From positions 1-64,000 of the IMG/VR virus record IMGVR_UViG_3300032274_000001: a stretch of 64,000 nt of DNA; one strand, 5' to 3'. The notes under the pieces were generated by a model that saw nothing but the letters and a program-made list of their open reading frames with translations, was not told the DNA's origin and made no database searches. The translations under genes and the position numbers were made by a program. This document shows, piece by piece, positions 3,001 through 54,570 of the stretch. This DNA comes from a virus. Lineage: Duplodnaviria; Caudoviricetes. Numbering within the stretch: position 1 is the first letter of the stretch; each line of letters opens with the position of its first letter.

Positions 3001-3598
3001 CCAGTTCAACAAGCTGATCGCCGAGGGCCACCACAAGGCAGCGGTCACGGGCTTCAAGGCATTCCTTGAGTCGCAGGAATTCCAAGACGGCATGGACGCC
3101 ATCAGCCAGGCCACCGACGACTTGAGGGAGATCCTTCCGCTTGCGGCCAGCGTGGCCCAGGAGACGGCGGCGACGTCCAGGCAGACGGTCGAGGCAGCGA
3201 CGCAACTGGAGGAGGCGCGCCAGGAGCAAGAGGTCGAATTCGTCGAGCACCGCAACGCGCTCGGCGCCGGGGTCGTCACGCCGTTCGGACGGGTCAACCA
3301 GTTCCAGTCTCGGAACTTCGTGCCGCAGCTGGCCACGGGAGGATTCGTCACCAGCGATGGGCTTGCATTCCTGCATGCGGGAGAGACGGTGGTGCCGGGC
3401 GGGGCCGGAGACAGTCGCATTGACGGGCTGGTGGCGGAGAACCGGGAGATGCGTGCGGCAATGGTGGACCTGGCCCAGGCGATTCGTGACCGGCCGATGG
3501 TGCTGGAGGTAGAGCAGCGGGTGCTTGCCGAGGCGACCATCGCGGGCATCGAGGAGCAGGGCTTGGGCGAGCGTCGGCTATTCGTGAGGAGTCGCTAG
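26..3598 (+). CDS. Tail tape measure protein (5'-truncated; frame stays open to the window start)
   Basis: Gly/Ala-rich helical repeats, Gly-zipper hydrophobic segments, C-terminal LATGG..G.AFLHAGETVVP motif typical of tape measures; precedes tail genes. Confidence 0.8.
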   Translation: MQPGQQGTDLDLGGALGGIGAGIASGRAFEKKFNSRFDSGDGVRRLTTTDINRIAQDSLREGLKIKSQIVGAIGGAVTGALTGGAGGAIGGSIFGLVSSGLSSALLSQIDLDTLEKRKVDISFDPLLGGLINLFGGAGVLGLPTRGTAFRRAAEKGIFDESQFFGEEDGLQSIFGDITRDKGDALGLKVRRNYETGLLTAFERGLDPEVGRTIAGATAAIVGEAFSGSEPKDAGRIAADSGQIIAEFFSRGITTGLDSGEILNEARTALKGLVGELGQGLDFFDLVGSAQTFGLTNLPQSQELFGGIGAHAETISPFRAAAESITGVIRLFEDDFPQGTQVALSALQSLENEAGDGPFRTLTSSSADFLVAASSDFETLVDLLQQQLGAGLEINVERFERLTEAASQSAQIVSGALSAALTSGAPQLSIDTLFAGIGEQVKSQFSAAIKGALLDQTAIGQALTPITKALQSLPKIDLLDVAQRDFFSAALSQGIAEGRANLADYIPLIKEMIAAGEEFEALIDEATEPSRAERFGAAIEAALASASQNFSASLSEALFNGLLNGNVLSAGESLSSQVGDLVKTNLLKGIVEAFVAAAGIDALFEKYGPQLQFVVQSALSGAASDEQVQAQFKRIGEEMQGDAEGVIDVLFTGAQQLAPLFDALIPDEKTLTLNVEVEGDGVGGGTRPQVGNIPTDGVGNDPRIPENSPLRTDSRAPQSRTRRTNPFEGLASVAGLGSAQFNDTRRPLASGLLVRPDVLNEVLPPNPVRTITDPPPATPRVPTGVNANDFRNRGTDPSIQRGAPPGGFGGGGSGGSVDPEDFLLRFSFGGGILDSILGALGEDDSLQSVIRQQTGQGILQGMVDTFLSGPLVEEIMAPLQEAFFRAADDGLISTAEGEALTKLGEEASSQLADAALFMSGPMQAVAETFGLGVQKEVEKAADVLSGGFGSALRSVLVDGGEADQAFQRAIFDATIGGMIEAFLAGELMQPALDQFNKLIAEGHHKAAVTGFKAFLESQEFQDGMDAISQATDDLREILPLAASVAQETAATSRQTVEAATQLEEARQEQEVEFVEHRNALGAGVVTPFGRVNQFQSRNFVPQLATGGFVTSDGLAFLHAGETVVPGGAGDSRIDGLVAENREMRAAMVDLAQAIRDRPMVLEVEQRVLAEATIAGIEEQGLGERRLFVRSR

Positions 3599-3599
3599 G

Positions 3600-4454
3600 A
3601 TGTCGGAGACGAACCCCACCCGAGGCATCATCTCGCTGGAGAACTGGGTCACGGACCGTGCCTCGGCCATCCTGTCGGTGACGTCGGCGAAGAATCTGTT
3701 TCCGAAGGGCAACCTGCGCAACGCTCACCGGTCGCAGGTGTGGCGGTCGACGAGTGCCACGGTGGCGCAAGAGATCGACATCCAACTCGACCAGGCCAGG
3801 CTCCCTACGGTGTTCGGGCTGGTCAACTGCAATCTCGACGTCTCACAGTCCGTGACCCTGACGCAGGCTTCGGACTCGGGGTTCACCGGTAGCGTGGCGA
3901 CCTGGACGCTGACGACCCCCACGGTGGCGCAGACGAACCGCCGGACGCTGCGTTGGTACTTGGGTGCGGCTGACACCGGCACGGCAGCGGCGCGCCAGTT
4001 CTGGCGCATCACACTCCCGGCCAACGGGTCGAAGGACAGCGACGGCGACGGCACCGACGACGCATACCTCGAGCTCGGCGTGCCCTACCTGGGGGAGTGG
4101 TCCGAGTTGAGTCTGCAGCCGGGGCTAGATCGGCGGATCATCGACCCGTCGATTGTCGTCGAGGGCGATGGTGGCGCGAAGTTCGCCGACGTCCGGACCA
4201 CCTACCACGAGGTCTCGGCCCAGTCGCGAGCCATGACGGCAGCCAACGCGCTTGCCATGATGGCGGACATGGACCAAGCGGGGATAGTACGGCACTTGAT
4301 GCTGGACATCTGGGCCAAGACCACCGACGACGCAGAGCGCGTGAACGGCACCTACTACGGGACGCTGGGCCGGCGCGGGGACGTGGCGCGGTTCCAGAGG
4401 GCCATCGAGTTGAGGGACAATCTGGCATTCTCGTTCGTAGAGGCGAGGGCGTAG
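3600..4454 (+). CDS. Minor/distal tail protein
   Basis: Directly after TMP; FPKGNLRNAHRSQVWRS / FGLVNCNL pattern resembles phage tail beta-sandwich proteins. Confidence 0.6.
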   Translation: MSETNPTRGIISLENWVTDRASAILSVTSAKNLFPKGNLRNAHRSQVWRSTSATVAQEIDIQLDQARLPTVFGLVNCNLDVSQSVTLTQASDSGFTGSVATWTLTTPTVAQTNRRTLRWYLGAADTGTAAARQFWRITLPANGSKDSDGDGTDDAYLELGVPYLGEWSELSLQPGLDRRIIDPSIVVEGDGGAKFADVRTTYHEVSAQSRAMTAANALAMMADMDQAGIVRHLMLDIWAKTTDDAERVNGTYYGTLGRRGDVARFQRAIELRDNLAFSFVEARA

Positions 4455-4458
4455 GCGG

Positions 4459-7400
4459 GTGGCGGTCGAGGCGTTTGGCGTCTCGCGGTTCAACTTCTTC
4501 TACGCCGCCCGAGACAACGAGGACATCGAGTACACCGCGCTCGGCTCTACGCTGTCGTCGGCGTTCACTGTCCCGGAGAAACGAGGCACGGCGACGCTGG
4601 TGTCCACGGCGGGGCTCCAGACCGGCGACATCATCCGGATCAAGGATGCCACCTACGACACCTACTGGGTGGTGGAGAAGGTCGTCAGCGGTACGCAGGT
4701 GGTCGTCAGGGCATTTCCTGGGCAGACGGTAGGGACGCAGCCGTGGCCGTGGGGCTCGGAGATCGGCACGGCGGGGAGCTCGGCATCGAACAAGGACGTG
4801 ACGCCGCAGCAGCCCATGTGGCTGTACATCGACCTGACGGAAGCCCCCGAGGGGGAGACATACGACTACCTGGTCTACGGGGCTGCGTCGGTGTCGTGCG
4901 ATACGGCCAACGAGGCATTCTACGTCGACTGCCGGGCAGCGGTCCCGGGCCCGGAGTCGTCGCCGTATGCGTCGAGCCTGACGAGCCCGACCCACGTCCG
5001 TCACCGTGCCGAGTACGAGTGCTTCAATGCCGACTTCGAGGACTGGTACCCGTGGAACACGGCATTCACCGTCACGCTCGAGGCGGGCAAGCGCTACGGC
5101 TTTGCTGTTGAGGTTGACCTGGAGGGCATCACCAACGGCACGAAGGTTCGGCTCCGGTCGCCACGGCTGGGTGCGATGCGGATTGACAAGGCTCACTCGC
5201 TATTCGTCGAGGCAGGCAGTGGGGCCTTGGATGCGAACGTGTTCACGACGACGAATACGTCGCTGCAGGATGCGCTGACGGCGAGTGTCCCCGACCCGGG
5301 CTCGGCCACGGATTTCCTACTGGTCGGCTGCGCCTTGATTGGGAACACGGATGGCACGTCTGCGAACCGTGAGGTGCTGATCAAGTTCGACCAGCTGGGC
5401 CACGACTTCGAGGCAATGATTGCCGGGGCGCAGACGAACGCGCACCCCACCTGGGCAAGCATCGGGGTGGTGTCGCTGGCTGCGGCTACGGGCTTCAAGC
5501 TGCAGATCGCTGCCAAGTCGGCAGGCACGGCCCGGACGGAATCGCCGTACTTGGCAGCCATTCCATTCGCGGCCATCTACGGGCACGCCGCCCACCAGAG
5601 CGCCGACGACACGGGAGATGCGACGGCGTCTACGACGGAGTGGGTGAGCATCGATAGCGAATCGCTGACCCCGGACGAGGCTGGCTTGCACACTGCTTTC
5701 GTGGCCGCGGACCTGCGCCACAACGGGACCACGGACCAGACCGCGTATGCAAGGCCCCGGTTCCCCACGGACCCCGTAGCGGTCCACGACGGACGCGCCG
5801 CGCCCCGAGGGCTGGTCGGCTACAACAAGAACAACGCCATCGCGAGCGCGCACCAGCTCTGCTTCTGGTTCCACCGTGCGCACCTGGATGCGGTGGCGCA
5901 GGCGTTCAAGATCGAGGGCCGAAAGCGGGACGGGTCCACGGGTGGCGTGCAGGTAGGCGACAAGTTCTACGCGACGGCGATTCGGGAGCGGGGCCAGTTC
6001 GAGCCACGGCGTGGCGACAAGTCGTCGGTGGTGGTCGAGGTTGAGATAGGCCAGACCTACGACAACTGGGACAACCCGTCGGGGGTCCAGTATTCGCGGA
6101 CCATGGAGGAGGGGACGAAGCTCGTCAACGCGGTATCCACCAACACCAACGGCTACACGAAGGTCGCCACCACCGGGGCCCTGACCACCGATACGTTCCA
6201 CTACGACGTGGCGACTCGGTTGCTGACCATCGAGATGGACTCCGGGGAGAGCCCGGCGAATGCCGATACGCACGTGCTGGTGCGACGGTTGGCGCTGGTG
6301 TCCCGAGATGGGCAGGTGCTCACGGATGGCGACGGCGAGGACTTGCCCTACGACGCTGGCCTCAAGCGGCACCCGCGACTGAGCCGAACCCTGCAGGTCA
6401 GGGATGGGGCGATCGAGGTGGCTAGTTCCTTCGGTACACTGGAGCTCCAGAACGCGGAGGGCACGTGGGACGAGCCGTTCGCGCACGAGATCCTGGAGTC
6501 GATGCGGGTGACGGTCCTGCGGGGGTACCCGGAGCACTCGTCGCTGAGGGCGGATCAAGAGGTGATCAACCACGGCATCGTGTCGGTGCCGGACTGGTCG
6601 CAGACGCTTCTTCGGGGCCGGGTCTACGATGCGTCTCGGCGGCTCAAGTGGCCGGTGGCCAAGACGTTCGTCCAGGTCTACCAGGGCACGACGCAGACGG
6701 GCTCTGCGGGGGGCTCGGACGGGCAGTTGATGCCGGTGATCTACGGGGCTGTGTTTCGGGTGCCCGCGTGGCGGACGACCAACGAGACGGGCGACTCGTC
6801 GGTGAACGACTACCAGTTCGCCGCCCACGCCTGTCACAAGATCGTTGCCGTCTACGAGGACGGGCAGACCCAAGACACCATGACGGTGTCCACGGACAAG
6901 AAATCCACGGGCAAGGTCGAGATCAACAACGACCAATTCGCCAGCCACGCCAGCCCCGACCCGGCCCCGGACGTGATCTACGTCGATGTCGTCGGGTACG
7001 AGGAGACGGTAGAGAGCGCGACGGGCGTCCCCATCGAGACCATCGGGAGGATCTCCCGCCACCTCCTGACCACGTTTGCCGGGTACCTAGAGGGTGCGTT
7101 GGACGACGATGCGCACCGCCGTATAGACCTGATCCGCAGGCGCATCGATAGCCTGCTCGACCCGCTAGAGCGGGCGCCATCGGTGGCGCTGTACGTGAGT
7201 GACTCCCGTAGTGTCGCTGAGTGCCTCTCTCAGCTGTCCGTCTCCGGGTGGGGGTTCTGGTATGAGTCGCGGGCCGGGCGGCTCTCTTGGGGCGCCCTGG
7301 AGCCCGAGGCGCAGGCAATCACGCGCAACGGGGGCCTGGAGTTCGATTCGGCAGAGGCATGGCCCTGGGAGGCAGCCGGGGCGGGCACGCTGGCGCTCAA

Positions 7401-10400
7401 TTCCACGACACGGTTCGAGGGCGTGCGGTCGCTGAAGGTGGACTCGAACGGCTGGGGCTGGGCGCGCCAGGTGGTGGGCTTCCGCCATCCGGGGAAGTGG
7501 GTCGTCACGGGGTTGGTCGCGTTGGAGTCGGGCGGTGCAAACGGCTTCCGGCTGGGGTTCGTCCGGCCCGGCGATGGCTTGACCATCGAGTACAGCGACC
7601 CGTTTGCGGTGAACGACTCGCAGTGGACACGGGCGAACCTACTCACTGACCTGTGCCCAGGAGAGTCTGGCACCGGGCAAGTTGTCGTGGAGCCCTACTA
7701 CCCCGAGGGGCAGAGCCCGCAGTTGCCGCAGGCGTTGCAGGCAGCGCTGCAGATGTGGCTCAGGGCGGACCAGATGGTTGCCAACGGGGATGCCACCTCG
7801 GATGGCGATGCCGTGACGACGTGGACCAACGACGGGCTGGTGTCCGGCCAGGACCCCACGCAGGGCATCACAAACGAGAAGCCCGTCTACAGGGCCGACG
7901 CTTGGAGGGGTCACCCGGGCGTGCTCTTCGATGGCGTCGATGACGTGCTGGCATCCACGTACGACACGTCGAAGCCGTACTCGATATTCGTGGTGTGCCT
8001 GGCCAAGGACGACGCGGCAGAGCGGGACTGGGCGACCACCGACATGGGAGTCGTGGGCCCCTCGGCGTCGGACGACAACGTCGTGCTGGGGGTGCGCTCG
8101 GGGGACTACGGCGCGAGAGCGGAGCCGACGAGTCCGGAGCTCACCGACAGTACGGCAGTCACCTCGGGGCGTCCGGTGTTGCTTCGGCTGAGCGTAAAGA
8201 CCGGGGAGAGCCGCTACCAGCTCAACGACGGCACCGAGCAGACCAACACCAGCGATCCCGACCTGACCAACCTGGCCATCGGGGGCAACGCCACGGCGGG
8301 CTTCTGGAAGGGCTACGTGTTCGAGGTTCTGGTCTACGAAACGGAGCTATCCGGGACGGACGTCGACGACATCCAGAACTACTTGCGTGCCAAGTGGGGC
8401 ATCGACGAAGCGGTGGTGAATGTCGACAACCTGCTGTGTGTGCCCGTGGGTGCGGCGGTGGAGCTCGAGGGCCCGCCGGACGGCACGGCCCCATTCCACG
8501 ACCTGCGCATCGGCAAGGTGGCGGTGAAGCAGGACACGTTCTTCGAGACGCGAGTCCCCTACAACCCGAACCAGCAAGCCGGCGAGCGGACGAGCTCCGA
8601 GGCGGTGACGGACTCGCAGGCGTTCGGGTTGGAATCGACCTACAACCCCGACAGCTCACAGGCGCGGTCGACGATTGCCACGTCGAAGCGGCTGGACCTG
8701 GGCGACCAGGGTGCCCTGATCGGAAACGAGGTGGCGAGCGAGGCAGCCGACTCCGCCAGGGGAGTCGCGGCCAAGGTGTCGCGATGGTTCGGTCGCGTGC
8801 GCAGGGAGTTGCAAGGGACGCTGGTCGACTCCGCCCGGCTGCCCCAGGTGGGTCAGATTCTCTACACCCCACGCGGGAAGCGGTTGCCGCTGTCGTCGAC
8901 GTACTTCCCGTTCTGGGTCATGACGAAGGTGGAGGACGAGCCCAACTCGCAGGAGGTGGAGGTTGCGGCCGAGTACGAGGTCGACCTTCTGGGCGACCGG
9001 CAGGAGGTGAACCCTACCAACTTCCCCTTCGGTGGGATCGGCGTGGCACTCACCGATGCGGCTATCGCGGGCTGGGCGGTGGTCACCGACATGGGCGGCA
9101 AGTACGCCCTGGGGGCGCAGACGGCTGACCTGGAAAGCGAGCTGGGCAGCCCGGTGCACACCCACCAGCACAGCCACAACCACACCCTGGCGGCGCACAC
9201 GCACACCGTGCCGGCGCCCACGATAGGCATCCCGACCGCGACGCAGAAGAGTGCCGACGTCAGTGGCGCTGCGCGAATCACCCGGGCGGCCAACTCGCAT
9301 ACGCATGCAACGCCCGCCGGGACGACGTCAGGGGCGGTGGAGAGCGCGACGGTGGAGTCGCAGGTGCTGGTTACCAGCCCGGGCCCGAACGACCCGCCGA
9401 CCAAGTACGTGAGCTTCCGCAAGCGGGTTCAGGCGTCGGCGACCATCCCGACGAATATCTGTATCGGGTACCCGAGTGCTACGGTGCCCAGCGGTTGGAC
9501 TCGAGAGACGAGTTTGGACGGGTGGTGGATCCGCGGGTCTGTGCCGGGCCGGGATGGGACAGCGACGGCGCCCACCTCCAGCTATGTGCCGAACGACTCC
9601 GGATCGACGCTCAACTTGGTGGACGGGTCGAAGGTGGGTCTGGGTACGCGGCTCGTCATCACAGAGGGCTCGAACACGATCACGGTGGTGGTCACGGCGG
9701 TGATCGATGCGGATTCGTTCACGGTGAAGCCGGTGTGGGTGGTCGGGGACGACGACGCCACTTACACCACCGGGGCTACGGTCACGCCGGCCGCAGAGGA
9801 GGCGGGCGATACGCTGGCGCAGCTCTCCCACGACCACAAGGCAGCGCTTCCCGGGCACACGCACGACCTGGCGCACGCGCATGCCATCTCGGCTGGGGTT
9901 GCCGTAGGGGCCTCGAGCGGGACCGTAGACGTGACGGGCAACTCCGGGTCTCTCAAGGGTGCTGCGGCGGATGCGCATGTGCACGAGTATTACTCGACGC
10001 TGGCCTCGGCGACCCCGACCAGTCCGTCGGCGGCAGGGACGATTGCCGCGTCGGCGACGAACCCTGCGCCGTACTCGGAGATGGTTTTCATCAAGCCGTC
10101 AGGGTCGGAGACGGACGTGCCCAGCGACGGGATGATCTTTTGGCAGGGTGCGGCCGAGGATGTCCCAAGCGAGTGGACTGTGCTCGGGACCGTAGACGGC
10201 TTGCTGGTCAAGGGTGCGGAGACGGGATTGGGGCCTGTGTCGTCCGGGGGTGGGCACTCGCATGTCGCGACGCCGGCCGCGCATGGGGCGGCTGCGCATA
10301 CGCACACTGCGGTGTTCTCCAACGATGCCGTCGCTGGGTTGGACGTCTTGCCCGCAGCGGCAATCGACTACGCGACGGCGGTACCCGAGTCGGGTGTCGG

Positions 10401-10542
10401 CGGTGGGAGCCACCAGCACAATATGGCCAACGGTCCGAGCGACTCTGCGAATGCGACGTTGGACGCGGCATCCGGGACGGCGACGGATGTGTCGGCGGGG
10501 CTACCCCTGCACGGCAAGCTACTCGTCATCCAGCGGAGCTAG
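4459..10542 (+). CDS. Large tail hub/fibre protein (2027 aa) with CBM-like, LamG-like and three collar/HxH modules
   Basis: NGGLE...EGVRSLKVD (CBM-like); WLRAD..W..DG..Q....P.....GVLFDGVDD (LamG-like); repeated P.GW..DG collar-like motifs and many HxH motifs. Confidence 0.8.
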   Translation: MAVEAFGVSRFNFFYAARDNEDIEYTALGSTLSSAFTVPEKRGTATLVSTAGLQTGDIIRIKDATYDTYWVVEKVVSGTQVVVRAFPGQTVGTQPWPWGSEIGTAGSSASNKDVTPQQPMWLYIDLTEAPEGETYDYLVYGAASVSCDTANEAFYVDCRAAVPGPESSPYASSLTSPTHVRHRAEYECFNADFEDWYPWNTAFTVTLEAGKRYGFAVEVDLEGITNGTKVRLRSPRLGAMRIDKAHSLFVEAGSGALDANVFTTTNTSLQDALTASVPDPGSATDFLLVGCALIGNTDGTSANREVLIKFDQLGHDFEAMIAGAQTNAHPTWASIGVVSLAAATGFKLQIAAKSAGTARTESPYLAAIPFAAIYGHAAHQSADDTGDATASTTEWVSIDSESLTPDEAGLHTAFVAADLRHNGTTDQTAYARPRFPTDPVAVHDGRAAPRGLVGYNKNNAIASAHQLCFWFHRAHLDAVAQAFKIEGRKRDGSTGGVQVGDKFYATAIRERGQFEPRRGDKSSVVVEVEIGQTYDNWDNPSGVQYSRTMEEGTKLVNAVSTNTNGYTKVATTGALTTDTFHYDVATRLLTIEMDSGESPANADTHVLVRRLALVSRDGQVLTDGDGEDLPYDAGLKRHPRLSRTLQVRDGAIEVASSFGTLELQNAEGTWDEPFAHEILESMRVTVLRGYPEHSSLRADQEVINHGIVSVPDWSQTLLRGRVYDASRRLKWPVAKTFVQVYQGTTQTGSAGGSDGQLMPVIYGAVFRVPAWRTTNETGDSSVNDYQFAAHACHKIVAVYEDGQTQDTMTVSTDKKSTGKVEINNDQFASHASPDPAPDVIYVDVVGYEETVESATGVPIETIGRISRHLLTTFAGYLEGALDDDAHRRIDLIRRRIDSLLDPLERAPSVALYVSDSRSVAECLSQLSVSGWGFWYESRAGRLSWGALEPEAQAITRNGGLEFDSAEAWPWEAAGAGTLALNSTTRFEGVRSLKVDSNGWGWARQVVGFRHPGKWVVTGLVALESGGANGFRLGFVRPGDGLTIEYSDPFAVNDSQWTRANLLTDLCPGESGTGQVVVEPYYPEGQSPQLPQALQAALQMWLRADQMVANGDATSDGDAVTTWTNDGLVSGQDPTQGITNEKPVYRADAWRGHPGVLFDGVDDVLASTYDTSKPYSIFVVCLAKDDAAERDWATTDMGVVGPSASDDNVVLGVRSGDYGARAEPTSPELTDSTAVTSGRPVLLRLSVKTGESRYQLNDGTEQTNTSDPDLTNLAIGGNATAGFWKGYVFEVLVYETELSGTDVDDIQNYLRAKWGIDEAVVNVDNLLCVPVGAAVELEGPPDGTAPFHDLRIGKVAVKQDTFFETRVPYNPNQQAGERTSSEAVTDSQAFGLESTYNPDSSQARSTIATSKRLDLGDQGALIGNEVASEAADSARGVAAKVSRWFGRVRRELQGTLVDSARLPQVGQILYTPRGKRLPLSSTYFPFWVMTKVEDEPNSQEVEVAAEYEVDLLGDRQEVNPTNFPFGGIGVALTDAAIAGWAVVTDMGGKYALGAQTADLESELGSPVHTHQHSHNHTLAAHTHTVPAPTIGIPTATQKSADVSGAARITRAANSHTHATPAGTTSGAVESATVESQVLVTSPGPNDPPTKYVSFRKRVQASATIPTNICIGYPSATVPSGWTRETSLDGWWIRGSVPGRDGTATAPTSSYVPNDSGSTLNLVDGSKVGLGTRLVITEGSNTITVVVTAVIDADSFTVKPVWVVGDDDATYTTGATVTPAAEEAGDTLAQLSHDHKAALPGHTHDLAHAHAISAGVAVGASSGTVDVTGNSGSLKGAAADAHVHEYYSTLASATPTSPSAAGTIAASATNPAPYSEMVFIKPSGSETDVPSDGMIFWQGAAEDVPSEWTVLGTVDGLLVKGAETGLGPVSSGGGHSHVATPAAHGAAAHTHTAVFSNDAVAGLDVLPAAAIDYATAVPESGVGGGSHQHNMANGPSDSANATLDAASGTATDVSAGLPLHGKLLVIQRS

Positions 10543-22318: not shown

Positions 22319-23014
22319 TCAGAGCAGCGGAAGCTGCGGGTCTTGGGGGAGTGCTCCACGCTCGCGGAGTTCCATGCGCTTGAGCACTCCGTACCATCGG
22401 GAAGGCGGGGGCGGTGATCCACCGAGGCTGATCAAGCCGTGATCGTTTCGCAGGATAGCGATAGCCAGGGCCCGCCAAGAGGGCGCCAGGTTGCGCCTCT
22501 CAAGCTCCGGCGGCACCTCTTGGGGCATCCCCTCGGGGTACCCCCGAGACTCCCAAAGGCGAGCGTAGGCCCTCACGCGGGCATGTAGGCCCACGCCACC
22601 GAAGGTCTGGCCGTTCGGGGATGAGGCCTCTCCCGAGCTCAGTGAGAATCCCCGACTGGTGCTCCACTTGTGTAGGGCTCGGGCTGCTTCGGCGTTGGCT
22701 GCCCGCTGTTGATCGGGGCTCAGCAGGTGGAACCCGCCTCGGTACTTGGCGGGCACTCCGGTAGCGATGCACATGGAAGCTTGTCCGAGCCAGGCGATAC
22801 GGTTGGAGCTGGAGTTGGAGAGGAAGTGCTCGCACGAGACGGGCCACTTGGCGAGGACTTGCTGTAGAGCGGACTGAAACCGTGGCAGGTCTTGGAGGAA
22901 GTCGCAGTAGGCTTGCTTGGCCTCGTCGCTCGACATCCCCGCAGGGGGCGCCTCGGCGTACATGCCAGCGGGGACGCACTCCCACGCTGTCCAAGGGTGG
23001 TAGATTCGGGCCAT
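22319..23014 (-). CDS. IbrAB-associated protein with an IbrA C-terminal-like module
   Basis: RIYHPW..WE...GMY N-domain; C-terminal SWRALAIAILRNDH..LG matches IbrA SWKRFAITILKNDH..LG. Confidence 0.75.
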   Translation of the reverse strand: MARIYHPWTAWECVPAGMYAEAPPAGMSSDEAKQAYCDFLQDLPRFQSALQQVLAKWPVSCEHFLSNSSSNRIAWLGQASMCIATGVPAKYRGGFHLLSPDQQRAANAEAARALHKWSTSRGFSLSSGEASSPNGQTFGGVGLHARVRAYARLWESRGYPEGMPQEVPPELERRNLAPSWRALAIAILRNDHGLISLGGSPPPPSRWYGVLKRMELRERGALPQDPQLPLL

Positions 23015-23026
23015 GGTCAGGGCTGC

Positions 23027-23968
23027 CTAGCCGACTTCCTCGAACTGCTCGTCTTCCTCTGCGGCAGAAAGCTCTGCCTCCCAGGAGTCGGAAAAGTCGC
23101 TGTTCTCGAACAGGGCGGCGATGCCGGTGATCTGCTTCATGCGCAGGAGTTCATCTGCGCTCATGCCGATGTGACTGCAGATCCACCGGTCGCCCTTGCC
23201 CATCTCGACGAGCTCGGCAACGATCGCCGACATCAGCTCGATGTTATGAGAGCCCCGGGCCCGGTTGTGACGAATCGTGGACGCCATCCGGTCGCTCAGG
23301 TTCTTGTCGATGACCACGCAGGGCAAGCACCCGTTCTCCCGCTCCCGGATCTCAGCATTCTGCTTGAGGATGAGGAACCGGTGGAAGCCATCGACGACGA
23401 TGTACCGGTCGGACTCCTGGTCGTAGAATGTGACGACTGGTTGCGTGTAGCCGTCTGCTTCGATCGACACGCGCAGTAGCTCCATCTCGGGCGGCGCAAC
23501 GGCATTGGGGTTGTAGTCGTTGGCCTGGATCTTATCGATGGGAACGGGCCGCACGTCGTAGACGGGAGATCGGGTGGGCCGCTCCGGGGCCGGGTAGGAG
23601 CCGTTGTCGTCGTGGACTTCCCTGCCCGTGACGGGAGGGTTGAACACGGAGATAAGCGTCACGTCCGTCAGGGCTTGGAACGTGTGCGGGTCGTTCTCGT
23701 CCAGGACGTAAGTGTCGCCGGGGACGATGGTCCACTCGTCGCCTGTGGCCTCGCTACGCAGGATGCCCTTGCCGGCGATGCAATGGCAGGCCTCCTGGTG
23801 GTGCTTGTAGTGCCACCGCTGTGGAGCCCCCTGGGGAATCTCTGTGCGGTGCATGGAGAAGCCCAGGCCATCGGCGGCAAGCACGGGGCGGAAGCTGGTG
23901 AAGCCGCCCTGTGGGCACTGGACTTCGCGGTCGCTGCCCTCAAGCGAGGAGTGGCGTATCACTTTCAT
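23027..23968 (-). CDS. ibrB: EctC-type cupin fused to IbrB (ParB/Srx domain)
   Basis: aa 1-126: DGLGFSMH..HYKHHQEA..VFNPPVTGREVHD..GSYP; then SPVYDV..ANDYNPN.VAPPEM.LL..SI..DGYTQP..DGFHR. Confidence 0.9.
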   Translation of the reverse strand: MKVIRHSSLEGSDREVQCPQGGFTSFRPVLAADGLGFSMHRTEIPQGAPQRWHYKHHQEACHCIAGKGILRSEATGDEWTIVPGDTYVLDENDPHTFQALTDVTLISVFNPPVTGREVHDDNGSYPAPERPTRSPVYDVRPVPIDKIQANDYNPNAVAPPEMELLRVSIEADGYTQPVVTFYDQESDRYIVVDGFHRFLILKQNAEIRERENGCLPCVVIDKNLSDRMASTIRHNRARGSHNIELMSAIVAELVEMGKGDRWICSHIGMSADELLRMKQITGIAALFENSDFSDSWEAELSAAEEDEQFEEVG

Positions 23969-25292
23969 CGGCGGGCTTCTCCTTCTGCTGAATGGGTAGG
24001 TCTTTGTACTTGGCCATGATGGCCTTCTGTCGTGCCATCTGCTCCTGAGATGGGGCGAGTCCGAGGTACTTGCAGGTGTGGTCGTTCTTCAGAATCGTGA
24101 TGGCAAATCGCTTCCACGACGCCACCATGCCGGGGTTGGTCTTGAGCATGTCGCAATGGTCGGGGAAGCGTTGGATGCGAACGCGCCGCAGGGTCTTGTT
24201 GCCGTGAGAGGTGAGGCCGTTGAGCTTGAACGGGATGCCATGCTGCTCGAGCTGCTCGATGATCTCGTCGGGGAGTCCGCGGCCCAACCTTCCCCAGACC
24301 TTGAACGACTGGATGAACCGCCTACGAAAATTTGCCGCCACCCCCTCGGGGAGCGTGTCGAGTAGGAACTTGACGAACGACTTCCAGGTGTGGCCCTCGG
24401 GGAGTTTGAAGCTGCGGTAGCCGAGCTGCTTGCCGTAGGTGGCGACGAAGTTGGCGCCCTGGACGCGCGCGCAGAGCTTCGCCCACACGGGCGGGTCGAT
24501 CACGCGGTACAGGTTAAGGCTCGACTTCGACTCACTCATGAACGGCGAGGCAACGCGCATCTTCCCCAGCGGAACATTGGCTCGGTAGAAGATGTCGTAG
24601 AGGCGGTTGTACTCCCACTCGAATCGAGCGTTGGCGATCCAGACATCCTCGGTGCGCCAGTCGTAGACCGGGTACACGTTGAACACGTTGGGCCCGTTGC
24701 GCTTGGTCCACATCCGCCCGCCGAGGGTTTCCTTGCGGGGGTTCATGATGGCGCGGAAGCGGTTGAGGCTCTCAGCGGTCCTGATGCCAATGACACAGGC
24801 TGTGCGTTCGCCCTGTGAGTACCACTCGCCGAACTGGTCCCAGAAGTCCTCGTAGGACATGTCCTCCCGGAAGAAATCGAACGGGTGGTTGCCCATGTGG
24901 ACGATGTAGTCCTGCTCAGGAAGAGGACGGATCCAGCGCTCGCGATCAGACTCGCCCCAGCACTGCCACTCGACATCGTAGGCACTGACCGTGCACGGCA
25001 GAGTGATTGGCATGCAGCACCAGTAGACGTCGAGGAGGTCGAGGTTTTTGCCCAAAATGCTGTGCATGAACTGGAGGCTGATCTCGTAGTTCGCCTCGTT
25101 GTCCAGGATCATGACGCCGATCTTCTTGGTGATGCCATGCTTGCGCATGTAGTCGAGGAAGAGATTGAGAACGACGCCAGAGTCCTTGCCGCCGGAGAAC
25201 GAGACGTAAATCCGGGGGAAGTTCTCGAACAGCCAGCCGATGCGCTCCATGGCGGCGTCGTAGACGTTGAGGTCGGGGTTGTAGGCTCTCAT
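23940..25292 (-). CDS. ibrA: IbrA-like PAPS-reductase/PP-loop + DUF3440 protein
   Basis: SFSGGKDS PP-loop; GIRTAESLNRFRAI; YPVYDW..EDVW; MRVASPF. Confidence 0.9.
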   Translation of the reverse strand: MRAYNPDLNVYDAAMERIGWLFENFPRIYVSFSGGKDSGVVLNLFLDYMRKHGITKKIGVMILDNEANYEISLQFMHSILGKNLDLLDVYWCCMPITLPCTVSAYDVEWQCWGESDRERWIRPLPEQDYIVHMGNHPFDFFREDMSYEDFWDQFGEWYSQGERTACVIGIRTAESLNRFRAIMNPRKETLGGRMWTKRNGPNVFNVYPVYDWRTEDVWIANARFEWEYNRLYDIFYRANVPLGKMRVASPFMSESKSSLNLYRVIDPPVWAKLCARVQGANFVATYGKQLGYRSFKLPEGHTWKSFVKFLLDTLPEGVAANFRRRFIQSFKVWGRLGRGLPDEIIEQLEQHGIPFKLNGLTSHGNKTLRRVRIQRFPDHCDMLKTNPGMVASWKRFAITILKNDHTCKYLGLAPSQEQMARQKAIMAKYKDLPIQQKEKPADESDTPLLA

Positions 25293-25303
25293 GCCGGGCC
25301 AGT

Positions 25304-25327
25304 CGTAAACGCTACGAGCGGTTTACG
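25304..25327. promoter_or_regulatory. Operator-like inverted repeat CGTAAAC-N10-GTTTACG, 11 nt upstream of ibrA
   Basis: Perfect 7-bp arms; overlaps a possible TTGCGT-N17-TACGAC minus-strand promoter. Confidence 0.6.
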
Positions 25328-25337
25328 CAAGTCGTGG

Positions 25338-25676
25338 TCATAGTCGATGGTTCGTCTCGATATCTCGCAGTACGAGCATCCCCTGCGAGATCGCCAGAGC
25401 GACCGGGGCCAGCATCTGCGGGTGCACGGTGGAGCCGCCCGAGAGGACGTAGCCGCTCGCTGCAGAGCCGTCTTTGTCATCCTCGCGGGCCTCGACAACT
25501 AGGCGATAGAAGTGCGCCCCGATGGGCTTGCAGTAGACGGTGACGGTCTGGCCTCCGTCAGCACCCGGGTAGTGCGCGATCTGGTTCAGCTCGTGGGGTT
25601 CGTAGTCGCCATCCCCCCAGCACCAGTTACTACCGAAGGCGGCGATTTCCTCGTATGTCGGCGCGTTATCGTTCAT
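25338..25676 (-). CDS. Hypothetical protein
   Basis: Coupled ORF. Confidence 0.55.
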   Translation of the reverse strand: MNDNAPTYEEIAAFGSNWCWGDGDYEPHELNQIAHYPGADGGQTVTVYCKPIGAHFYRLVVEAREDDKDGSAASGYVLSGGSTVHPQMLAPVALAISQGMLVLRDIETNHRL

Positions 25677-28990: not shown

Positions 28991-29037
28991 GGTATACCAT
29001 GACAAACGAGCCGATGTAAACCCCCGGGCGAGTTTAT
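28991..29037 (-). promoter_or_regulatory. Leftward promoter plus operator GTAAAC-N10-GTTTAT at the second divergence point
   Basis: TTTACA-N18-(TGG)TATACC; TGTAAACCCCCG identical to 17715-17726. Confidence 0.55.
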
Positions 29038-29101
29038 CACCCGGGCTGGACAAGGCTCGGAGGTGGGCGTATTTGTCTGGCCTTGACCGGAGGAGAGACG
29101 A

Positions 29102-29362
29102 ATGATGGTCGGCGGACGAGGAATGCAATGCGATGCCCCGGGGTGCAGGGAAGCCTTCACAGAGCCACCACTTAGCGGGTGGGGGCGCCCTTCGCGCTTG
29201 GGTAGTACTCGGCTCCACGGGGCCGCCAGTCGCGCCGGGTGGGATTGGTTCACCGGCATGCTGGAGCGCACCTATCACTTCTGCCCGAACCACGTGGGCA
29301 AGACAGAGCACGCCCGCATGTTGCGACTGTGCTCCGAGAGCATGAAGGAGATTAGCGAATGA
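29102..29362 (+). CDS. Zn-finger protein
   Basis: CDAPGC...HFCP.H. Confidence 0.6.
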   Translation: MMVGGRGMQCDAPGCREAFTEPPLSGWGRPSRLGSTRLHGAASRAGWDWFTGMLERTYHFCPNHVGKTEHARMLRLCSESMKEISE

Positions 29363-33846: not shown

Positions 33847-34213
33847 GGACAAGAAGGTTCACGTGTTTGCGTGCACAGAGCACGACATGGCTCTTGGTGG
33901 TGGTCCTTTGCCCACGCATCCGAAAGCGATTGAGGTTCAGGATCGCATGACGAAGCCCATCAAGGGCGAACTGCGCGCCCTACGTAATGCCTACGAGGCC
34001 CTACGAAAACAGGGCTGGCGAGAGGTCATGTACGCGCCGAAGGATGGGTCAATGCTGGCGCTGATTCTTCCCGATTGTGCAGTGGTCGTAGAGGGGAACC
34101 GAGACAAGCATGGGTTCATGATGTTCGATGGCGACGGTTGGCCGTGTGACCCCGTGCTGTGGCGCCCCCTCGAAGAGGTAGACCCAGAGTACAAGGGGAC
34201 ACCCGGTGAGTGA
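33839..34213 (+). CDS. Hypothetical phage protein
   Basis: APKDG.MLAL motif; coupled ORF. Confidence 0.55.
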   Translation: MAEDKKVHVFACTEHDMALGGGPLPTHPKAIEVQDRMTKPIKGELRALRNAYEALRKQGWREVMYAPKDGSMLALILPDCAVVVEGNRDKHGFMMFDGDGWPCDPVLWRPLEEVDPEYKGTPGE

Positions 34214-35864
34214 CGCACTGACCCAGGCGCTTCATTACCTGGACCTCGGCTACCTGCCCGTCCCCTGCCTGCCCAACGGAAGCACGTGGGTGAACTGGCG
34301 AGAGATGGACAAGCGCCCCCCCACGGAGTCGCGGCTACGGGACTACTTCGAGGACCGCTCGGAGACGATGGTCAAGCTGGCCTTGCTGGGCGGGCTGTGC
34401 GCGATCCGGTGCGCCGGGGATAGGGCCGAGGCGTTGCTGGTCGAGCGAGGGTTGTCGATCCCACCAGGGGCCCCGGCGATCAACCAAGGCAACGTCTCGG
34501 TGTTCCTGCTCCGGGGCTTCGACGGAATCAAGAATCTCACGGAGGGCTCGGCCCTGTTCACGGGCGGCGATGCGAAGTCGCCCGATCTGGTCGAGGTGCA
34601 CGTCGGCAAGCTCGTAGCCGCACCCCCCTCGGAGGGCACGCAATGGTTCGGCGAGTTGCCGCTGTTCCCCGAGCTCCCAGAGGTACCGGCGCCGCTGGCC
34701 GCGCTGATCCAGGATCGCATCAAGGAGGTGGAGGAGAAGAAGCAAGGCGGCGCCCACTGGGCAGCAGTGTCGCTGAGGGGTGTCGATTCTCATGACTCCG
34801 TCGAGGAGGCGCACCGTCTGTGCGGGTACCTGAACGCCAAGGGCCTACCGCTGGACGTGTCTCGAGAGATCATGATGGCGTTCGCGGACAGGTGCCACCC
34901 GTTGCCAATGCTGGTGTCCGACGTGGATGCGATTATGAGGCGCCGCGAGTGGGACGGCAACGACGACGGAGCGGAGCGGCCCGGGGTGGTGTGGCACGAG
35001 GATGAAATCGAGGCCCACGTGGAGATGCGTCTCAAGCCGGTGGCGACATCGTGGGTGGCCCCCACGCCGCTGCCGAGTGTGAACCAAGCCTTGCGGGGTG
35101 GGTTCAAGGGCGGGCGGATCTATCTCGTGGCGGGCGAGCCCGGGGCGGGCAAGACGGCGCTGGTGATTCAGACGCTAGTCAGGGCGGCCAAGGCGGGCAT
35201 CAAGAGCTTCATGGTGTCGGCGGAGATGCCTCGCGACTCGATCTACGACCGGGAGATTGCCGCCGAGGGCCAGCTCGACGTCGGCAAGGTCGAGGACGGA
35301 CTGGCCGACCCCCATGCGATGGCCTACGTGGCGGAGAAGCTGTCGGGGCTGCCGATCGCGTTGGCGAACAACTCGGTACGTTGCGTCCAGGACATCGTAG
35401 ACCAGGTGAAGCTACACGAGCCGAAGCTGGTCGTGGTGGACTACTTGCAGTTGATCGCTCACGACGAGCGGGGCAGGGATACCCGGGAGCGGGTGGAGGC
35501 GGTGTCGAAGGGGCTAAAGGGGTTGGCGAAGCGCGAGGGGTGCGCGGTGGTGTGCGTGTCGTCGCTGACGAAGAAGGACAGCAAGCGAGCCGGGGAGGAG
35601 ATGCCCACCAACGATCGCCTCCGGGAGTCTGGTGCGTTGCACTTCGACGCCGATGGCATTCTGCTCTTGGGCCGAGAGAACGGTCAGACCAAGTGCGCGC
35701 TGTCGAAGAACAAGTACGGGCCCATCGGGACGTTCGACATGGAGTTCAAGGGCTCGACGATGAGCTTCACCGAGAAGGGAGGGGCGGACGTCCCGGACGG
35801 GAGATTCCCCGACGACGACGCCGGCCCGGATGTGTTGGGGGAGGTGGTCGATGAGTTCTTCTAG
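34206..35864 (+). CDS. Prim-pol-like N-domain fused to DnaB-like SF4 helicase
   Basis: GEPGAGKT Walker A, SAEM, VVVDYLQLI, LRESG...DAD; N-terminal LVAAPPS. Confidence 0.85.
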   Translation: MSDALTQALHYLDLGYLPVPCLPNGSTWVNWREMDKRPPTESRLRDYFEDRSETMVKLALLGGLCAIRCAGDRAEALLVERGLSIPPGAPAINQGNVSVFLLRGFDGIKNLTEGSALFTGGDAKSPDLVEVHVGKLVAAPPSEGTQWFGELPLFPELPEVPAPLAALIQDRIKEVEEKKQGGAHWAAVSLRGVDSHDSVEEAHRLCGYLNAKGLPLDVSREIMMAFADRCHPLPMLVSDVDAIMRRREWDGNDDGAERPGVVWHEDEIEAHVEMRLKPVATSWVAPTPLPSVNQALRGGFKGGRIYLVAGEPGAGKTALVIQTLVRAAKAGIKSFMVSAEMPRDSIYDREIAAEGQLDVGKVEDGLADPHAMAYVAEKLSGLPIALANNSVRCVQDIVDQVKLHEPKLVVVDYLQLIAHDERGRDTRERVEAVSKGLKGLAKREGCAVVCVSSLTKKDSKRAGEEMPTNDRLRESGALHFDADGILLLGRENGQTKCALSKNKYGPIGTFDMEFKGSTMSFTEKGGADVPDGRFPDDDAGPDVLGEVVDEFF

Positions 35865-54352: not shown

Positions 54353-54544
54353 ATGAGTGACGTAGAGTACCGACTGAAGTTCCGGATTGGCGATGCGGCA
54401 GTTTACAAGGGGGAGATCACTGGCCGCGTAGATGCGATCCGGATCGAAGCCGAGTCCGTGAGGGTCCGGCTGGTGATAGACGAGATCGGGACGCAGCTGT
54501 GGGCTCTAGAGTCGCTGGTCGACTTCGCCCCCGATCCCGCCTGA
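54353..54544 (+). CDS. Small SH3-like protein
   Basis: KFRIGD.A...G.V..I pattern. Confidence 0.5.
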   Translation: MSDVEYRLKFRIGDAAVYKGEITGRVDAIRIEAESVRVRLVIDEIGTQLWALESLVDFAPDPA

Positions 54545-54570
54545 CCCCGGGGGGTGATCGCATCGAAAGC

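Follow-up and report, generated by a model that had tools for sequence, protein, structure and literature searches.

Phage cassettes combining IbrA, an EctC-type cupin, IbrB and a conserved third protein: a variant of the IbrAB systems with a tentatively predicted role in DNA modification

Three adjacent genes of an uncultured tailed phage encode a variant of the already known IbrAB systems. They were analyzed in a 64,000-nucleotide stretch (hereafter the window; positions 1 to 64,000 of the 72.9-kb IMG/VR contig IMGVR_UViG_3300032274_000001). As a cassette, they fall within a widespread subfamily of phage IbrAB systems that invariably combine IbrA and IbrB with the N-terminal domain of the third protein (ORF3N), and the window shows the cupin-bearing layout of this subfamily (IbrA - EctC - IbrB - ORF3N - C) at its most fused. 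On the strength of conserved linkage, domain fusions, conserved residues and links to DNA through IbrB and the neighboring genes, we tentatively favor, with a probability of about 0.45, a reading in which the cassette would be a DNA-bound, ATP-dependent machine that modifies phage DNA or a nucleotide precursor and protects it against host restriction or defense.

Gene organization

The three minus-strand ORFs (Table 1) are closely packed, as the first-pass annotation of this DNA had stated: ibrA and the EctC::IbrB gene overlap by 29 nt, 12 nt separate IbrB from ORF3, and GC3 values of 0.75-0.85 back all three reading frames. Four further minus-strand genes of the same operon lie directly upstream of ibrA, and two exonuclease-like genes are found upstream of the cassette, which does adjoin recombination genes, as had been claimed, and sits inside a long leftward early operon amid replication and recombination genes.

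Table 1. Coordinates of the cassette genes, their domains and the upstream repeat (positions in the window)
Feature	Coordinates	Strand	Description
ibrA	23940..25292	-	450 aa; PP-loop ATP-pyrophosphatase fold (PAPS_reduct) + DUF3440
EctC::IbrB fusion gene	23027..23968	-	313 aa
EctC-type iron cupin domain	23588..23968	-	fusion-protein residues 1-127; Ectoine_synth
IbrB part of the fusion	23027..23578	-	residues 131-313 + stop codon; PHROG 2159
ORF3 gene	22319..23014	-	231 aa
ORF3N (N-domain of ORF3)	22640..23014	-	residues 1-125; all-alpha
ORF3C (C-domain of ORF3)	22319..22594	-	residues 141-231 + stop codon; duplicated IbrA C-terminal domain
Inverted repeat CGTAAAC-N10-GTTTACG	25304..25327	none	in the 45-nt gap upstream of ibrA

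An operator private to the cassette had also been proposed. The exact 7+7 inverted repeat is indeed present, but its role as an operator is unsupported given that the cassette is internal to a longer operon. Perfect inverted repeats of 8-9 nt are common in the 7.7 kb that hold it, its stability as an RNA hairpin is not above that of shuffled sequences (z -0.29), and it is not conserved in the related loci examined; where ibrA overlaps the upstream gene, as it does in other loci, no intergenic region is left. A search for sigma-70-like promoters across 21.5-30 kb found none, and no repeated binding site was detected around the cassette.

Domain composition of the encoded proteins

The domain assignments of the first-pass annotation hold for IbrA, the cupin and IbrB by Pfam, NCBIfam and PHROG matches, and the motifs that it listed are all in place. 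IbrA matches DUF3440 (PF11922, E 2.9e-57; residues 240-419, nt 24036-24575), PAPS_reduct (PF01507, E 9e-9) and PHROG 2302 (E 8e-105). The PP-loop SGGKDS (residues 33-38, nt 25179-25196) is at least 95% conserved across 77 IbrA homologs, among which C93 is the sole conserved cysteine; the canonical form of this loop points to ATP pyrophosphatase chemistry. Fold searches with the C-terminal half of IbrA gave no sign of a DNA-handling fold.

The N-terminal domain of the fusion protein is a clear member of the ectoine synthase family, with 132.8 bits (E 1e-38) against a cut-off of 27 for Ectoine_synth (PF06339), 135.1 bits against a cut-off of 128 for NCBIfam NF009806, and PDB matches to 5bxx (E 2e-28) and 5onn (E 6e-22). 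It is 41-47% identical to EctC proteins of true ectABC(D) clusters. The predicted iron ligands E59, Y87 and H95 are the counterparts of E57, Y85 and H93 in 5bxx (E57, Y84 and H92 in the P. lautus numbering) and show at least 95% conservation across 14 phage cupins, as do the substrate ligands R27, T42 and Y54 together with S25 and H57. Comparison with the EctC structures (5bxx, 5onn-5ono) indicates that the substrate and product ligands R25, T40, Y52, S23 and F106 are retained, whereas W21 is replaced by phenylalanine (F23) and N38 by histidine (H40); in the same HMMER alignment, histidine occupies the latter position also in S. alaskensis EctC (5bxx). The context of the phage domain differs from that of its cellular relatives. 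It is fused or adjacent to IbrB, and neither EctA nor EctB is encoded in the 72.9-kb phage record; the 11 nearest cellular EctC genes all show the ectABC(D) ORF layout (confirmed by NCBIfam models for 4 of the 11), and the phage cupins split from the EctC of ectABC clusters with 100/100 support. Because the EctC active site is conserved, the earlier suggestion that the cupin adds a small-molecule-type step appears reasonable. Judging from its ligands, the pocket is that for a free small amino-acid derivative, which suits a soluble metabolite no less than a group carried on DNA and so counts against DNA modification.

The remainder of the fusion protein is IbrB, with PHROG 2159 ("ParB-like") spanning fusion residues 81-309 (E 1e-79). 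A ParB/Srx-type N-domain with the motifs DGFHR (193-197) and RHNRARG (233-239), both invariant within a total of 47 invariant columns across 45 sequences, is followed by an HTH-like segment (about 255-280); in a PDB profile search, profile positions 121-149 match HTH repeats. The same search aligns DGFHR both with the GERR box of Helicobacter pylori ParB (4umk) and with DGVHR of SbnI (5uje), a protein named O-phospho-L-serine synthase in NCBIfam. The similarity to SbnI (E 0.002 with the single sequence, 0.03 with the profile) is as weak as that to ParB and Noc, and ParB_N reaches 20.8 bits against a cut-off of 26.3, with DGFHR at the GERR position as in SbnI. The DG-x-HR signature of the NTP site, common to IbrB and SbnI, was counted against DNA modification. 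No ParA-like protein is found among the ten annotated neighbor families.

ORF3 matches no Pfam family. It had been described as a protein that shares the C-terminal module of IbrA, and this module is indeed shared: residues 146-218 match PHROG 15645, which also matches IbrA residues 206-349, and a BLASTP alignment of ORF3 176-201 with IbrA 389-414 shows 46% identity (E 4e-5). What this description misses is ORF3N, which a large subfamily of IbrAB systems conserves as its third component. A phmmer search with ORF3C yields 77 matches to the C-termini of IbrA proteins from loci without the cupin (median 38.5 bits; see below) and none with E < 1e-5 to IbrA of the cupin layout, that of the window included; by sequence, then, ORF3C is nearer to the IbrA C-terminus of the cupin-less layout than to the IbrA encoded beside it. 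The AF2 model of ORF3N (pLDDT 91.8) finds no match among PDB structures (Foldseek best E 0.16; VIA best Z 4.4), and fold searches with ORF3 gave no sign of a DNA-handling fold. In the model of the whole protein, the two domains are packed together (pTM 0.83).

A widespread phage cassette

Relatives of ORF3N are encoded by 564 IMG/VR contigs and, in a separate count, by 770 clusters at 50% identity. Among 93 surveyed loci that carry ORF3N, 88 are not cut by a contig end, and in all 88 IbrA, IbrB and ORF3N are encoded on one strand. ORF3N lies directly 3' of IbrB in 90 of the 93; two of the others are cut by contig ends and one has IbrB on the opposite strand. Two layouts account for the complete loci: IbrB-ORF3N-IbrA without a cupin (72 of 88) and IbrA-EctC-IbrB-ORF3N(-C), always with the cupin (16 of 88, including the window, Mycobacterium phage Gaia and Pseudoalteromonas phage XCL1123). 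The first-pass annotation had made its proposal depend on conserved linkage in other genomes, and all parts are linked in every complete locus examined.

Natural domain fusions tie the components to one another. EctC::IbrB is fused in all of the best 120 clusters, ORF3N::C in at least 35 clusters, and IbrB::ORF3N in several natural fusions (P0087, P0100, P0101, P0105, P0111, P0116, P0248 and P0257); among the 16 sampled loci of the cupin layout, EctC::IbrB and ORF3N::C fusions occur together in the window only. Annotation of the ten commonest neighbor clusters identified helicases, exonucleases, an annealing protein, SSB and a resolvase, besides one functionally unassigned family: DNA helicase is found in 21 loci, a RecE-like exonuclease in 18, SSB in 14 and the Sak4 annealing protein in 12, with Cas4-type exonuclease (7 loci), Holliday-junction resolvase (6) and DnaB (6) being less common. 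The carriers include cultured phages of Actinomycetota, Gammaproteobacteria and Cyanobacteria; in Microcystis phage Mwe-JY13, for example, the cassette abuts YqaJ and RecT.

The cassette is not, however, the new object that it had been taken for. The pair was annotated in Gaia already in 2014, as "PAPS reductase" and "ectoine synthase/ParB multidomain protein", and metagenomes contain the fusion very often. Gaia (gp103-gp107), Nebkiss and XCL1123 share five domains with the window in identical order. In Gaia, gp103 is an IbrA with 68% identity to that of the window, gp104 is an EctC::ParB fusion as in the window, and gp106 and gp107 correspond to ORF3N (E 4e-14) and ORF3C (E 7e-13), respectively. 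Gaia and Nebkiss encode ORF3N and ORF3C separately, whereas these are fused in the window, and have an unrelated gene, gp105, between IbrB and ORF3N (annotated in Nebkiss as a GIY-YIG-like endonuclease); in XCL1123, the cupin and IbrB are separate genes, with ORF3N directly after.

The cupin-less loci, such as that of Mwe-JY13, encode the same IbrA, IbrB and ORF3N families, also beside recombination genes, but with a permuted gene order and with neither the cupin nor a free C-domain. IbrB of the window is 46-53% identical to that of the cupin-less layout versus 54-77% within the cupin layout, and for the C-terminal half of IbrA the respective values are 30-37% and 60-77%. The cupin layout probably derives from an IbrB-ORF3N-IbrA cassette in which IbrA was trimmed to its C-terminal domain once a second IbrA and the EctC-type cupin had been added upstream.

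IbrA and IbrB of E. coli and Streptococcus phages belong to the same families. The IbrA profile built from the surveyed loci matches IbrA of E. coli phage PhiR5_2 (E 1e-126) and Streptococcus phage CHPC1062 (E 4.5e-119), with the same architecture of PP-loop and DUF3440 with an ORF3C-like C-terminal domain, and the window-clade IbrB profile matches IbrB of both phages (E 2e-74 and 3e-73, respectively). The two genes are adjacent and co-oriented in the classical pairs as in the window. Unlike the window, the classical pairs (the ECOR-9 island, PhiR5_2, CHPC1062 and the K-12 paralogs YbdN/YbdM) consist of two genes, ordered IbrA-IbrB, without ORF3N, the cupin or the extra C-domain.

Functional prediction

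We tentatively infer a role of the cassette in DNA modification or anti-restriction. Under the preferred reading, all cassette proteins would join in one DNA-bound enzyme complex, in which IbrB, with its ParB/Srx NTP-binding domain and HTH, would carry the complex to DNA and ORF3N would bridge IbrB to the IbrA-type C-terminal domain. IbrA would spend ATP on adenylating a carbonyl or carboxyl group in the target, in the manner of PP-loop enzymes, and so allow a nucleophile to be attached to replicating phage DNA or a nucleotide precursor; the cupin would then make or tailor an amino-acid-like group by cyclo-condensation, with the reverse, hydrolytic reaction being equally possible. The likely gain would be the shielding of phage DNA from host restriction or defense. 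ParB-like proteins work with nucleic-acid-modifying enzymes in the DndB/DndC pair, the PP-loop fold being common to DndC and IbrA, and a second example is DpdB/DpdA, where DpdB is described as a ParB-like ATPase driving dPreQ0 insertion into DNA (PMC12839542). The phage early-region neighborhood is weak evidence because anti-defense and regulatory genes also reside there.

A regulatory function is a possible but unlikely alternative. IbrB could be a ParB-type, NTP-gated DNA clamp or anti-silencer that turns on phage or host genes, with IbrA, ORF3 and the cupin acting as cofactors or ligand sensors. The only experimental phenotype of IbrAB that we could trace, activation of the eib genes of prophages in E. 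coli ECOR-9 (Sandt et al. 2002, cited in PMC8065619), points, so far as that citation describes it, to regulation rather than modification. Compatible with this are the GenBank label "co-activator of prophage gene expression" on phage homologs, the combination of a ParB N-domain with an HTH-like segment in IbrB, and the tight repression by YbdO of ybdNM, a resident chromosomal operon of E. coli (PMC9068703). A regulator, however, needs neither a strictly conserved PP-loop nor a conserved EctC catalytic center; the surroundings of the cassette lack a repeated binding site, and the cassette resides in replication and recombination modules rather than at regulatory junctions.

Comparably unlikely is a pathway that leaves DNA untouched and instead produces or breaks down a soluble compound, either a metabolite or a nucleotide derivative, such as one that inhibits a host defense signal or serves as its decoy. 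IbrB would then be a kinase-like enzyme of the ParB/Srx type and IbrA an adenylating ligase, and the cupin would work as a cyclase or hydrolase. The cupin pocket retains the ligands for free N-gamma-acetyl-diaminobutyrate or ectoine, DG-x-HR of IbrB aligns with DGVHR of SbnI, and the absence of the cupin from most complete loci makes it look like a tailoring step. Yet the HTH-like segment is kept in IbrB, its similarity to SbnI is no stronger than that to ParB/Noc, the cassette has no linked transporter or other metabolic genes, and the neighbors are DNA enzymes throughout.

The first-pass annotation likened the pair to DndC and DndB of phosphorothioation systems, in which a ParB-like DndB is paired with a PP-loop DndC, as IbrB is with IbrA. 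This resemblance survives at the level of the fold (PADLOC DndC, 31.9 bits, E 1.7e-8, residues 162-261) and not beyond: IbrA reaches 25.7 bits with the TIGR03183 DndC model (cut-off 290.4), a DndB match is lacking for IbrB, PADLOC finds no match for IbrB or ORF3, and the single conserved cysteine of IbrA implies that the DndC-type cysteine or iron-sulfur site is absent, there being no conserved cysteine cluster. The annotated neighbor families include no linked DndA, DndD, DndE or DpdA. It is therefore very unlikely that IbrA puts sulfur into the DNA backbone like DndC or mimics phosphorothioation to escape PT-dependent restriction. A Vibrio phage PAPS-domain protein has been implicated in Dnd escape, but its architecture differs: the PAPS domain is joined to a Dam methylase, and there is neither DUF3440 nor a ParB partner (bioRxiv 10.1101/2021.05.05.442762).

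Finally, the notion that these are auxiliary metabolic genes, with IbrA serving sulfate assimilation as a viral PAPS reductase and the cupin making ectoine to protect the infected cell osmotically, is suggested by automatic annotation ("ectoine synthase [Thiolinea sp.]", "phosphoadenosine phosphosulfate reductase") and by the above-cut-off NCBIfam score of the cupin, but is extremely improbable given the canonical SGGKDS loop, the lack of EctA and EctB, the fusion of the cupin to a ParB-like protein in a clade apart from ectABC EctC, and the scores of the CysH models (21.6 bits against 254.2 for TIGR02057; 20.5 against 165.1 for TIGR00434). CysH has a C-terminal catalytic cysteine motif of the ECG or EC-x-x-H type, and neither occurs anywhere in IbrA. 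The Dnd, CysH and osmolyte-pathway identities were rejected on these sub-cut-off scores and the missing EctA/EctB.

Within the favored reading of DNA-directed modification, a more specific scheme can be envisaged, which we regard as a long shot. PP-loop adenylation is exemplified by TilS, which acts on a tRNA cytidine; by IbrA adenylation, an amino-acid-derived group might similarly be put on a base of replicating phage DNA, and in the cupin-bearing layout the EctC-type domain would then convert this group to a cyclic amidine by ring closure. If true, this would amount to a previously unseen hypermodified DNA base and would provide a function for the long-unexplained "solitary EctC-type" proteins.

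Conserved linkage and two layouts of the cassette

A scan of IMG/VR with the alignment of the N-domain of ORF3 (residues 1-125, ORF3N) yields 564 contigs. Profiles of IbrA, EctC, IbrB, ORF3N and the ORF3 C-domain (residues 141-231, ORF3C) were compared with the six-frame ORFs of 93 loci that carry ORF3N. Wherever a locus is not truncated by a contig end, IbrA, IbrB and ORF3N are encoded on one strand, so that the synteny implied by the proposal of a gene module holds in other genomes. Two layouts are found. In 72 loci, the order is IbrB-ORF3N-IbrA, without the cupin; the other layout, found in 16 loci, is IbrA-EctC-IbrB-ORF3N and then ORF3C, either as its own gene or fused, and the cupin is present in 16 of 16. 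Members of the cupin layout include the window, metagenome loci with four or five separate genes, Mycobacterium phage Gaia, Nebkiss, and Pseudoalteromonas phage XCL1123.

In Gaia, gp103 is an IbrA protein 68% identical to that of the window, gp104 is annotated “ectoine synthase/ParB multidomain protein”, and gp106 and gp107 are homologs of ORF3N (E 4e-14) and ORF3C (E 7e-13), respectively; XCL1123 likewise encodes an ORF3N homolog (E 1e-15). Unlike in the window, an unrelated gene separates IbrB from the ORF3N homolog in Gaia (gp105, 3625-3999 of the surveyed locus L002) and Nebkiss (gene 105, a GIY-YIG-like endonuclease by annotation); this may be a homing endonuclease that has invaded the cassette. 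Microcystis phage Mwe-JY13 has the cupin-less layout, directly followed by YqaJ recombinase and RecT. The ORF3N homolog of this phage (2049-2474 of locus L107) is named “ParB/sulfiredoxin” in GenBank, yet contains no ParB domain, and the EctC::IbrB fusion is named “ectoine synthase” in one NCBI MAG record; these labels show how annotation errors can spread.

IbrAB was named in 2002. Such pairs abound in phages, in prophages and on chromosomes, and 216 cultured-phage records match IbrA. ORF3N is absent from classical IbrAB pairs that are clearly homologous (for example, in Escherichia phage PhiR5_2 and Streptococcus phage CHPC1062) and thus marks a large IbrAB subfamily rather than the whole family.

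Genomic context and the putative operator

The viral record is 72.9 kb long, with an estimated completeness of 84%; the window, its first 64 kb (G+C about 65%), encodes terminase, portal protein and a DnaB-like helicase. The cassette comprises three consecutive genes within a leftward operon, a minus-strand run with high GC3 that extends from approximately 29000 down to approximately 21800. The genes for IbrA and EctC::IbrB overlap by 29 nt, and 12 nt separate the latter from ORF3. Pfam, NCBIfam, PHROG and PDB matches, together with the gene spacing, agree with the description of the proteins and motifs in the first-pass annotation.

Genes of the cassette in the window
Gene	Coordinates	Strand	Length (aa)	Matches
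IbrA	23940-25292	-	450	DUF3440, E 2.9e-57; PAPS_reduct, E 9e-9; PHROG 2302, E 8e-105
EctC::IbrB	23027-23968	-	313	cupin, residues 1-127; PHROG 2159 “ParB-like”, residues 81-309, E 1e-79
ORF3	22319-23014	-	231	PHROG 15645, residues 146-218

At a divergent junction (29000-29359), the cassette operon is set against a rightward operon leading to the DnaB-like helicase (34206-35864); this junction is likely to be the early regulatory region of the phage. Elsewhere on the plus strand, the window contains two very large ORFs, 26-3598 (1190 aa) and 4459-10542 (2027 aa), with no PHROG match at E 1e-5, and, among the late genes, a glycosyltransferase-like protein (54499-55707; PHROG 2170, E 1e-20).

The 45-nt gap that precedes ibrA contains an exact inverted repeat, CGTAAAC-N10-GTTTACG, which had been taken for an operator of the cassette's own. 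This interpretation is rejected because the minus-strand genes, two of them exonuclease-like (PHROGs 10477 and 298), continue unbroken upstream of the repeat; no promoter-like site was found across 21.5-30 kb of the window; the predicted hairpin is not more stable than those of shuffled sequences (z -0.29); several perfect inverted repeats of 8-9 nt lie within the neighboring coding sequence; and in related loci ibrA overlaps its upstream gene. Among inverted repeats in the region, the longest (25355-25398, 16-nt arms, 81% complementary) lies inside a 112-aa gene just upstream of ibrA.

The location beside recombination genes is confirmed in the window and proves to be general. Same-strand neighbors lying up to 3.5 kb from the cassette were clustered over the loci; the commonest clusters, once annotated, comprise a DNA helicase (21 loci), a RecE-like exonuclease (18), a Sak4-like annealing protein (12), SSB (two clusters, 8 and 6), a Cas4-type exonuclease (7), a Holliday-junction resolvase (6), a DnaB-like helicase (6) and another exonuclease (5).

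Domains and predicted active sites

In IbrA, the canonical PP-loop motif SGGKDS occupies residues 33-38, and positions F32-S38 are at least 95% conserved among 77 IbrA sequences, in which C93 is the only conserved cysteine. The window IbrA has no CysH-type C-terminal motif, and its scores with the CysH and DndC models fall far short of the respective cut-offs. In IbrB, the motifs D193-G-F-H-R197 and R233-H-N-R-A-R-G239 are invariant; in a PDB profile search, DGFHR falls on the GERR box of Helicobacter pylori ParB and on DGVHR of SbnI, and positions 121-149 resemble a helix-turn-helix.

The cupin domain matches the Pfam ectoine synthase family (E 1e-38), the corresponding NCBIfam model (135 bits, cut-off 128) and PDB entry 5bxx (E 2e-28). 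The iron ligands of EctC from P. lautus, E57, Y84 and H92, correspond to E59, Y87 and H95; the EctC ligand-contacting residues R27, T42, Y54, S25 and F108 are retained, whereas W21 and N38 are replaced by F and H, respectively. Most of these residues, all except F108, reach a conservation of 95% or more in a set of 14 phage cupins. The phage record encodes neither EctA nor EctB. All 11 nearest cellular EctC proteins (41-47% identical) come from an ectABC(D) ORF layout, confirmed with NCBIfam models for 4 of the 11, and a single scan of genome contigs with the cupin query found only true ectABC(D) clusters. The phage cupins are split from these nearest cellular EctC proteins with a support of 100/100.

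ORF3 has no Pfam or NCBIfam family. PHROG 15645 matches both this protein and IbrA (residues 206-349), and BLASTP aligns ORF3 residues 176-201 with IbrA residues 389-414 (46% identity, E 4e-5). Full-length relatives (about 210-240 aa, 41-59% identical) comprise two domains split by a variable linker; relatives consisting of the N-domain only (about 140 aa, 50-66% identity) are far more numerous. A profile search of 1.84 billion representatives with ORF3N retrieves 770 clusters, 569 of them at E 1e-10 or better, mostly stand-alone proteins of 110-170 aa. Among 48 ORF3N sequences, 24 positions are invariant, including W11-E12-C13, W57, S60, E62, N71-R72, W75, G77-Q78 and C82.

The AlphaFold2 model of ORF3 (38 sequences) is all-alpha, with pLDDT 91.8 and pTM 0.83, and only the linker is disordered. 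Foldseek detects no related solved structure in the PDB (best E 0.16), and VIA-align against 48,161 chains finds nothing related (best Z 4.4, rmsd 2.9 over 60 residues). The BFVD matches of the model belong only to the same two families, the Gaia and XCL1123 proteins among them, and the ESM Atlas returns no named neighbors (scores of 0.88 or lower). The model of the C-terminal half of IbrA (pLDDT 69.8) gives nothing usable, with a best Z of 4.2 and MarR-type regulators as top Foldseek hits (E 0.3-1).

Fusions and the origin of ORF3C

EctC and IbrB are fused in all of the best 120 clusters, with proteins of about 300 aa of the window protein's kind at 61-69% identity; IbrB::ORF3N fusions occur in at least 8 clusters and ORF3N::ORF3C fusions in at least 35, and IbrA natively contains an ORF3C-like domain. 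Among the 16 sampled loci of the cupin layout, only the window combines EctC::IbrB with ORF3N::ORF3C. These fusions, the invariant gene order, the often overlapping start and stop codons and the close packing of the two domains in the ORF3 model argue for a single multi-subunit assembly. A complex prediction for IbrB residues 131-313 (alignment A3) with ORF3 (alignment A1) scored 0.00 and was counted neither way.

Two metagenome proteins have unusual architectures. P0257 (637 aa) is an IbrB::ORF3N fusion in which the IbrB part is split by about 256 residues (profile positions of about 46 and 41), just past an invariant DGYTQP motif; with no Pfam match for the insert, an intein is possible but is not claimed. 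In P0259 (316 aa), called as a single protein, a small-terminase (Terminase_2) N-terminal part precedes a fragment of IbrB and then ORF3N; the gene is probably rearranged or mis-called.

A phmmer search with the window ORF3C retrieves 77 IbrA proteins of the cupin-less layout through their C-termini, at a median of 38.5 bits across about 69 residues, and 17 copies that are free or fused to ORF3N, at a median of 64 bits; no IbrA of the cupin layout, the window's own included, passes this threshold. In four loci of the cupin layout, the ORF that follows ORF3N retains a match to the final part of the IbrA profile. Both IbrB and the C-terminal half of IbrA form two identity classes that are split by layout. 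The simplest reading is that the cupin layout derives from IbrB-ORF3N-IbrA: a second IbrA and the cupin would have been added upstream, and the old IbrA then trimmed to its C-terminal domain, which may have been retained because ORF3N needs it.

Functional prediction

The cassette is a conserved, multi-part gene set, catalytically intact as judged by its residues, that is embedded in phage DNA-metabolism modules. We favor the inference that it encodes an ATP-dependent, DNA-directed modification machine, with a probability slightly below one half (about 0.45). IbrB would provide DNA binding and an NTP-gated step, ORF3N would bridge IbrB to the IbrA-type C-domain, IbrA would adenylate the target, and the cupin, where present, could catalyze EctC-type ring closure or opening of an amino-acid-like group.

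Among rival readings, a role as a transcriptional co-activator is in line with the sole reported IbrAB phenotype that was traced. A pathway acting on a soluble metabolite is favored by the cupin, with its small-molecule pocket, and by IbrB, with its SbnI-like signature. A role in a Dnd-like or anti-Dnd system fares worse: the defining features of Dnd that were tested are lacking, and the published case of Dnd evasion by a phage involves a different protein, a PAPS::Dam fusion. The “phage PAPS reductase that evades Dnd” is cited in PMC13551039; its identification with IbrA was rejected, the protein being a fusion of a PAPS domain with Dam methylase, as was JSS1_004, a protein kinase, as the relevant anti-Dnd protein. 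Rakesh et al. (2024), on the Dnd machinery, mention neither IbrAB nor cupins nor DUF3440. Sulfur or osmolyte auxiliary metabolism is contradicted by the data.

The IbrAB kind is already known, and GenBank has carried annotations of the EctC::ParB fusion from phage Gaia onward. In the literature searched, no paper was found on DUF3440 function or the EctC-ParB fusion, and the five-part cassette, ORF3N as a constant partner and the two layouts are undescribed.

For viral genes labeled “PAPS reductase” or “ectoine synthase”, these observations call for caution with sulfur or osmolyte auxiliary-metabolic readings, which are present in the literature. For the question of solitary EctC-type proteins (PMC5924519), the cassette offers a concrete genomic context. 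Tractable test systems are available in Mycobacterium phage Gaia, with M. smegmatis as host, and in Pseudoalteromonas phage XCL1123. Should the product prove to be a DNA modification, the chemistry would be new, with possible use in anti-restriction and DNA labeling. In the ORF3N subfamily, the IbrAB pair proves to be a three- to five-part machine with a strictly linked partner and, in one branch, an intact EctC-type enzyme.
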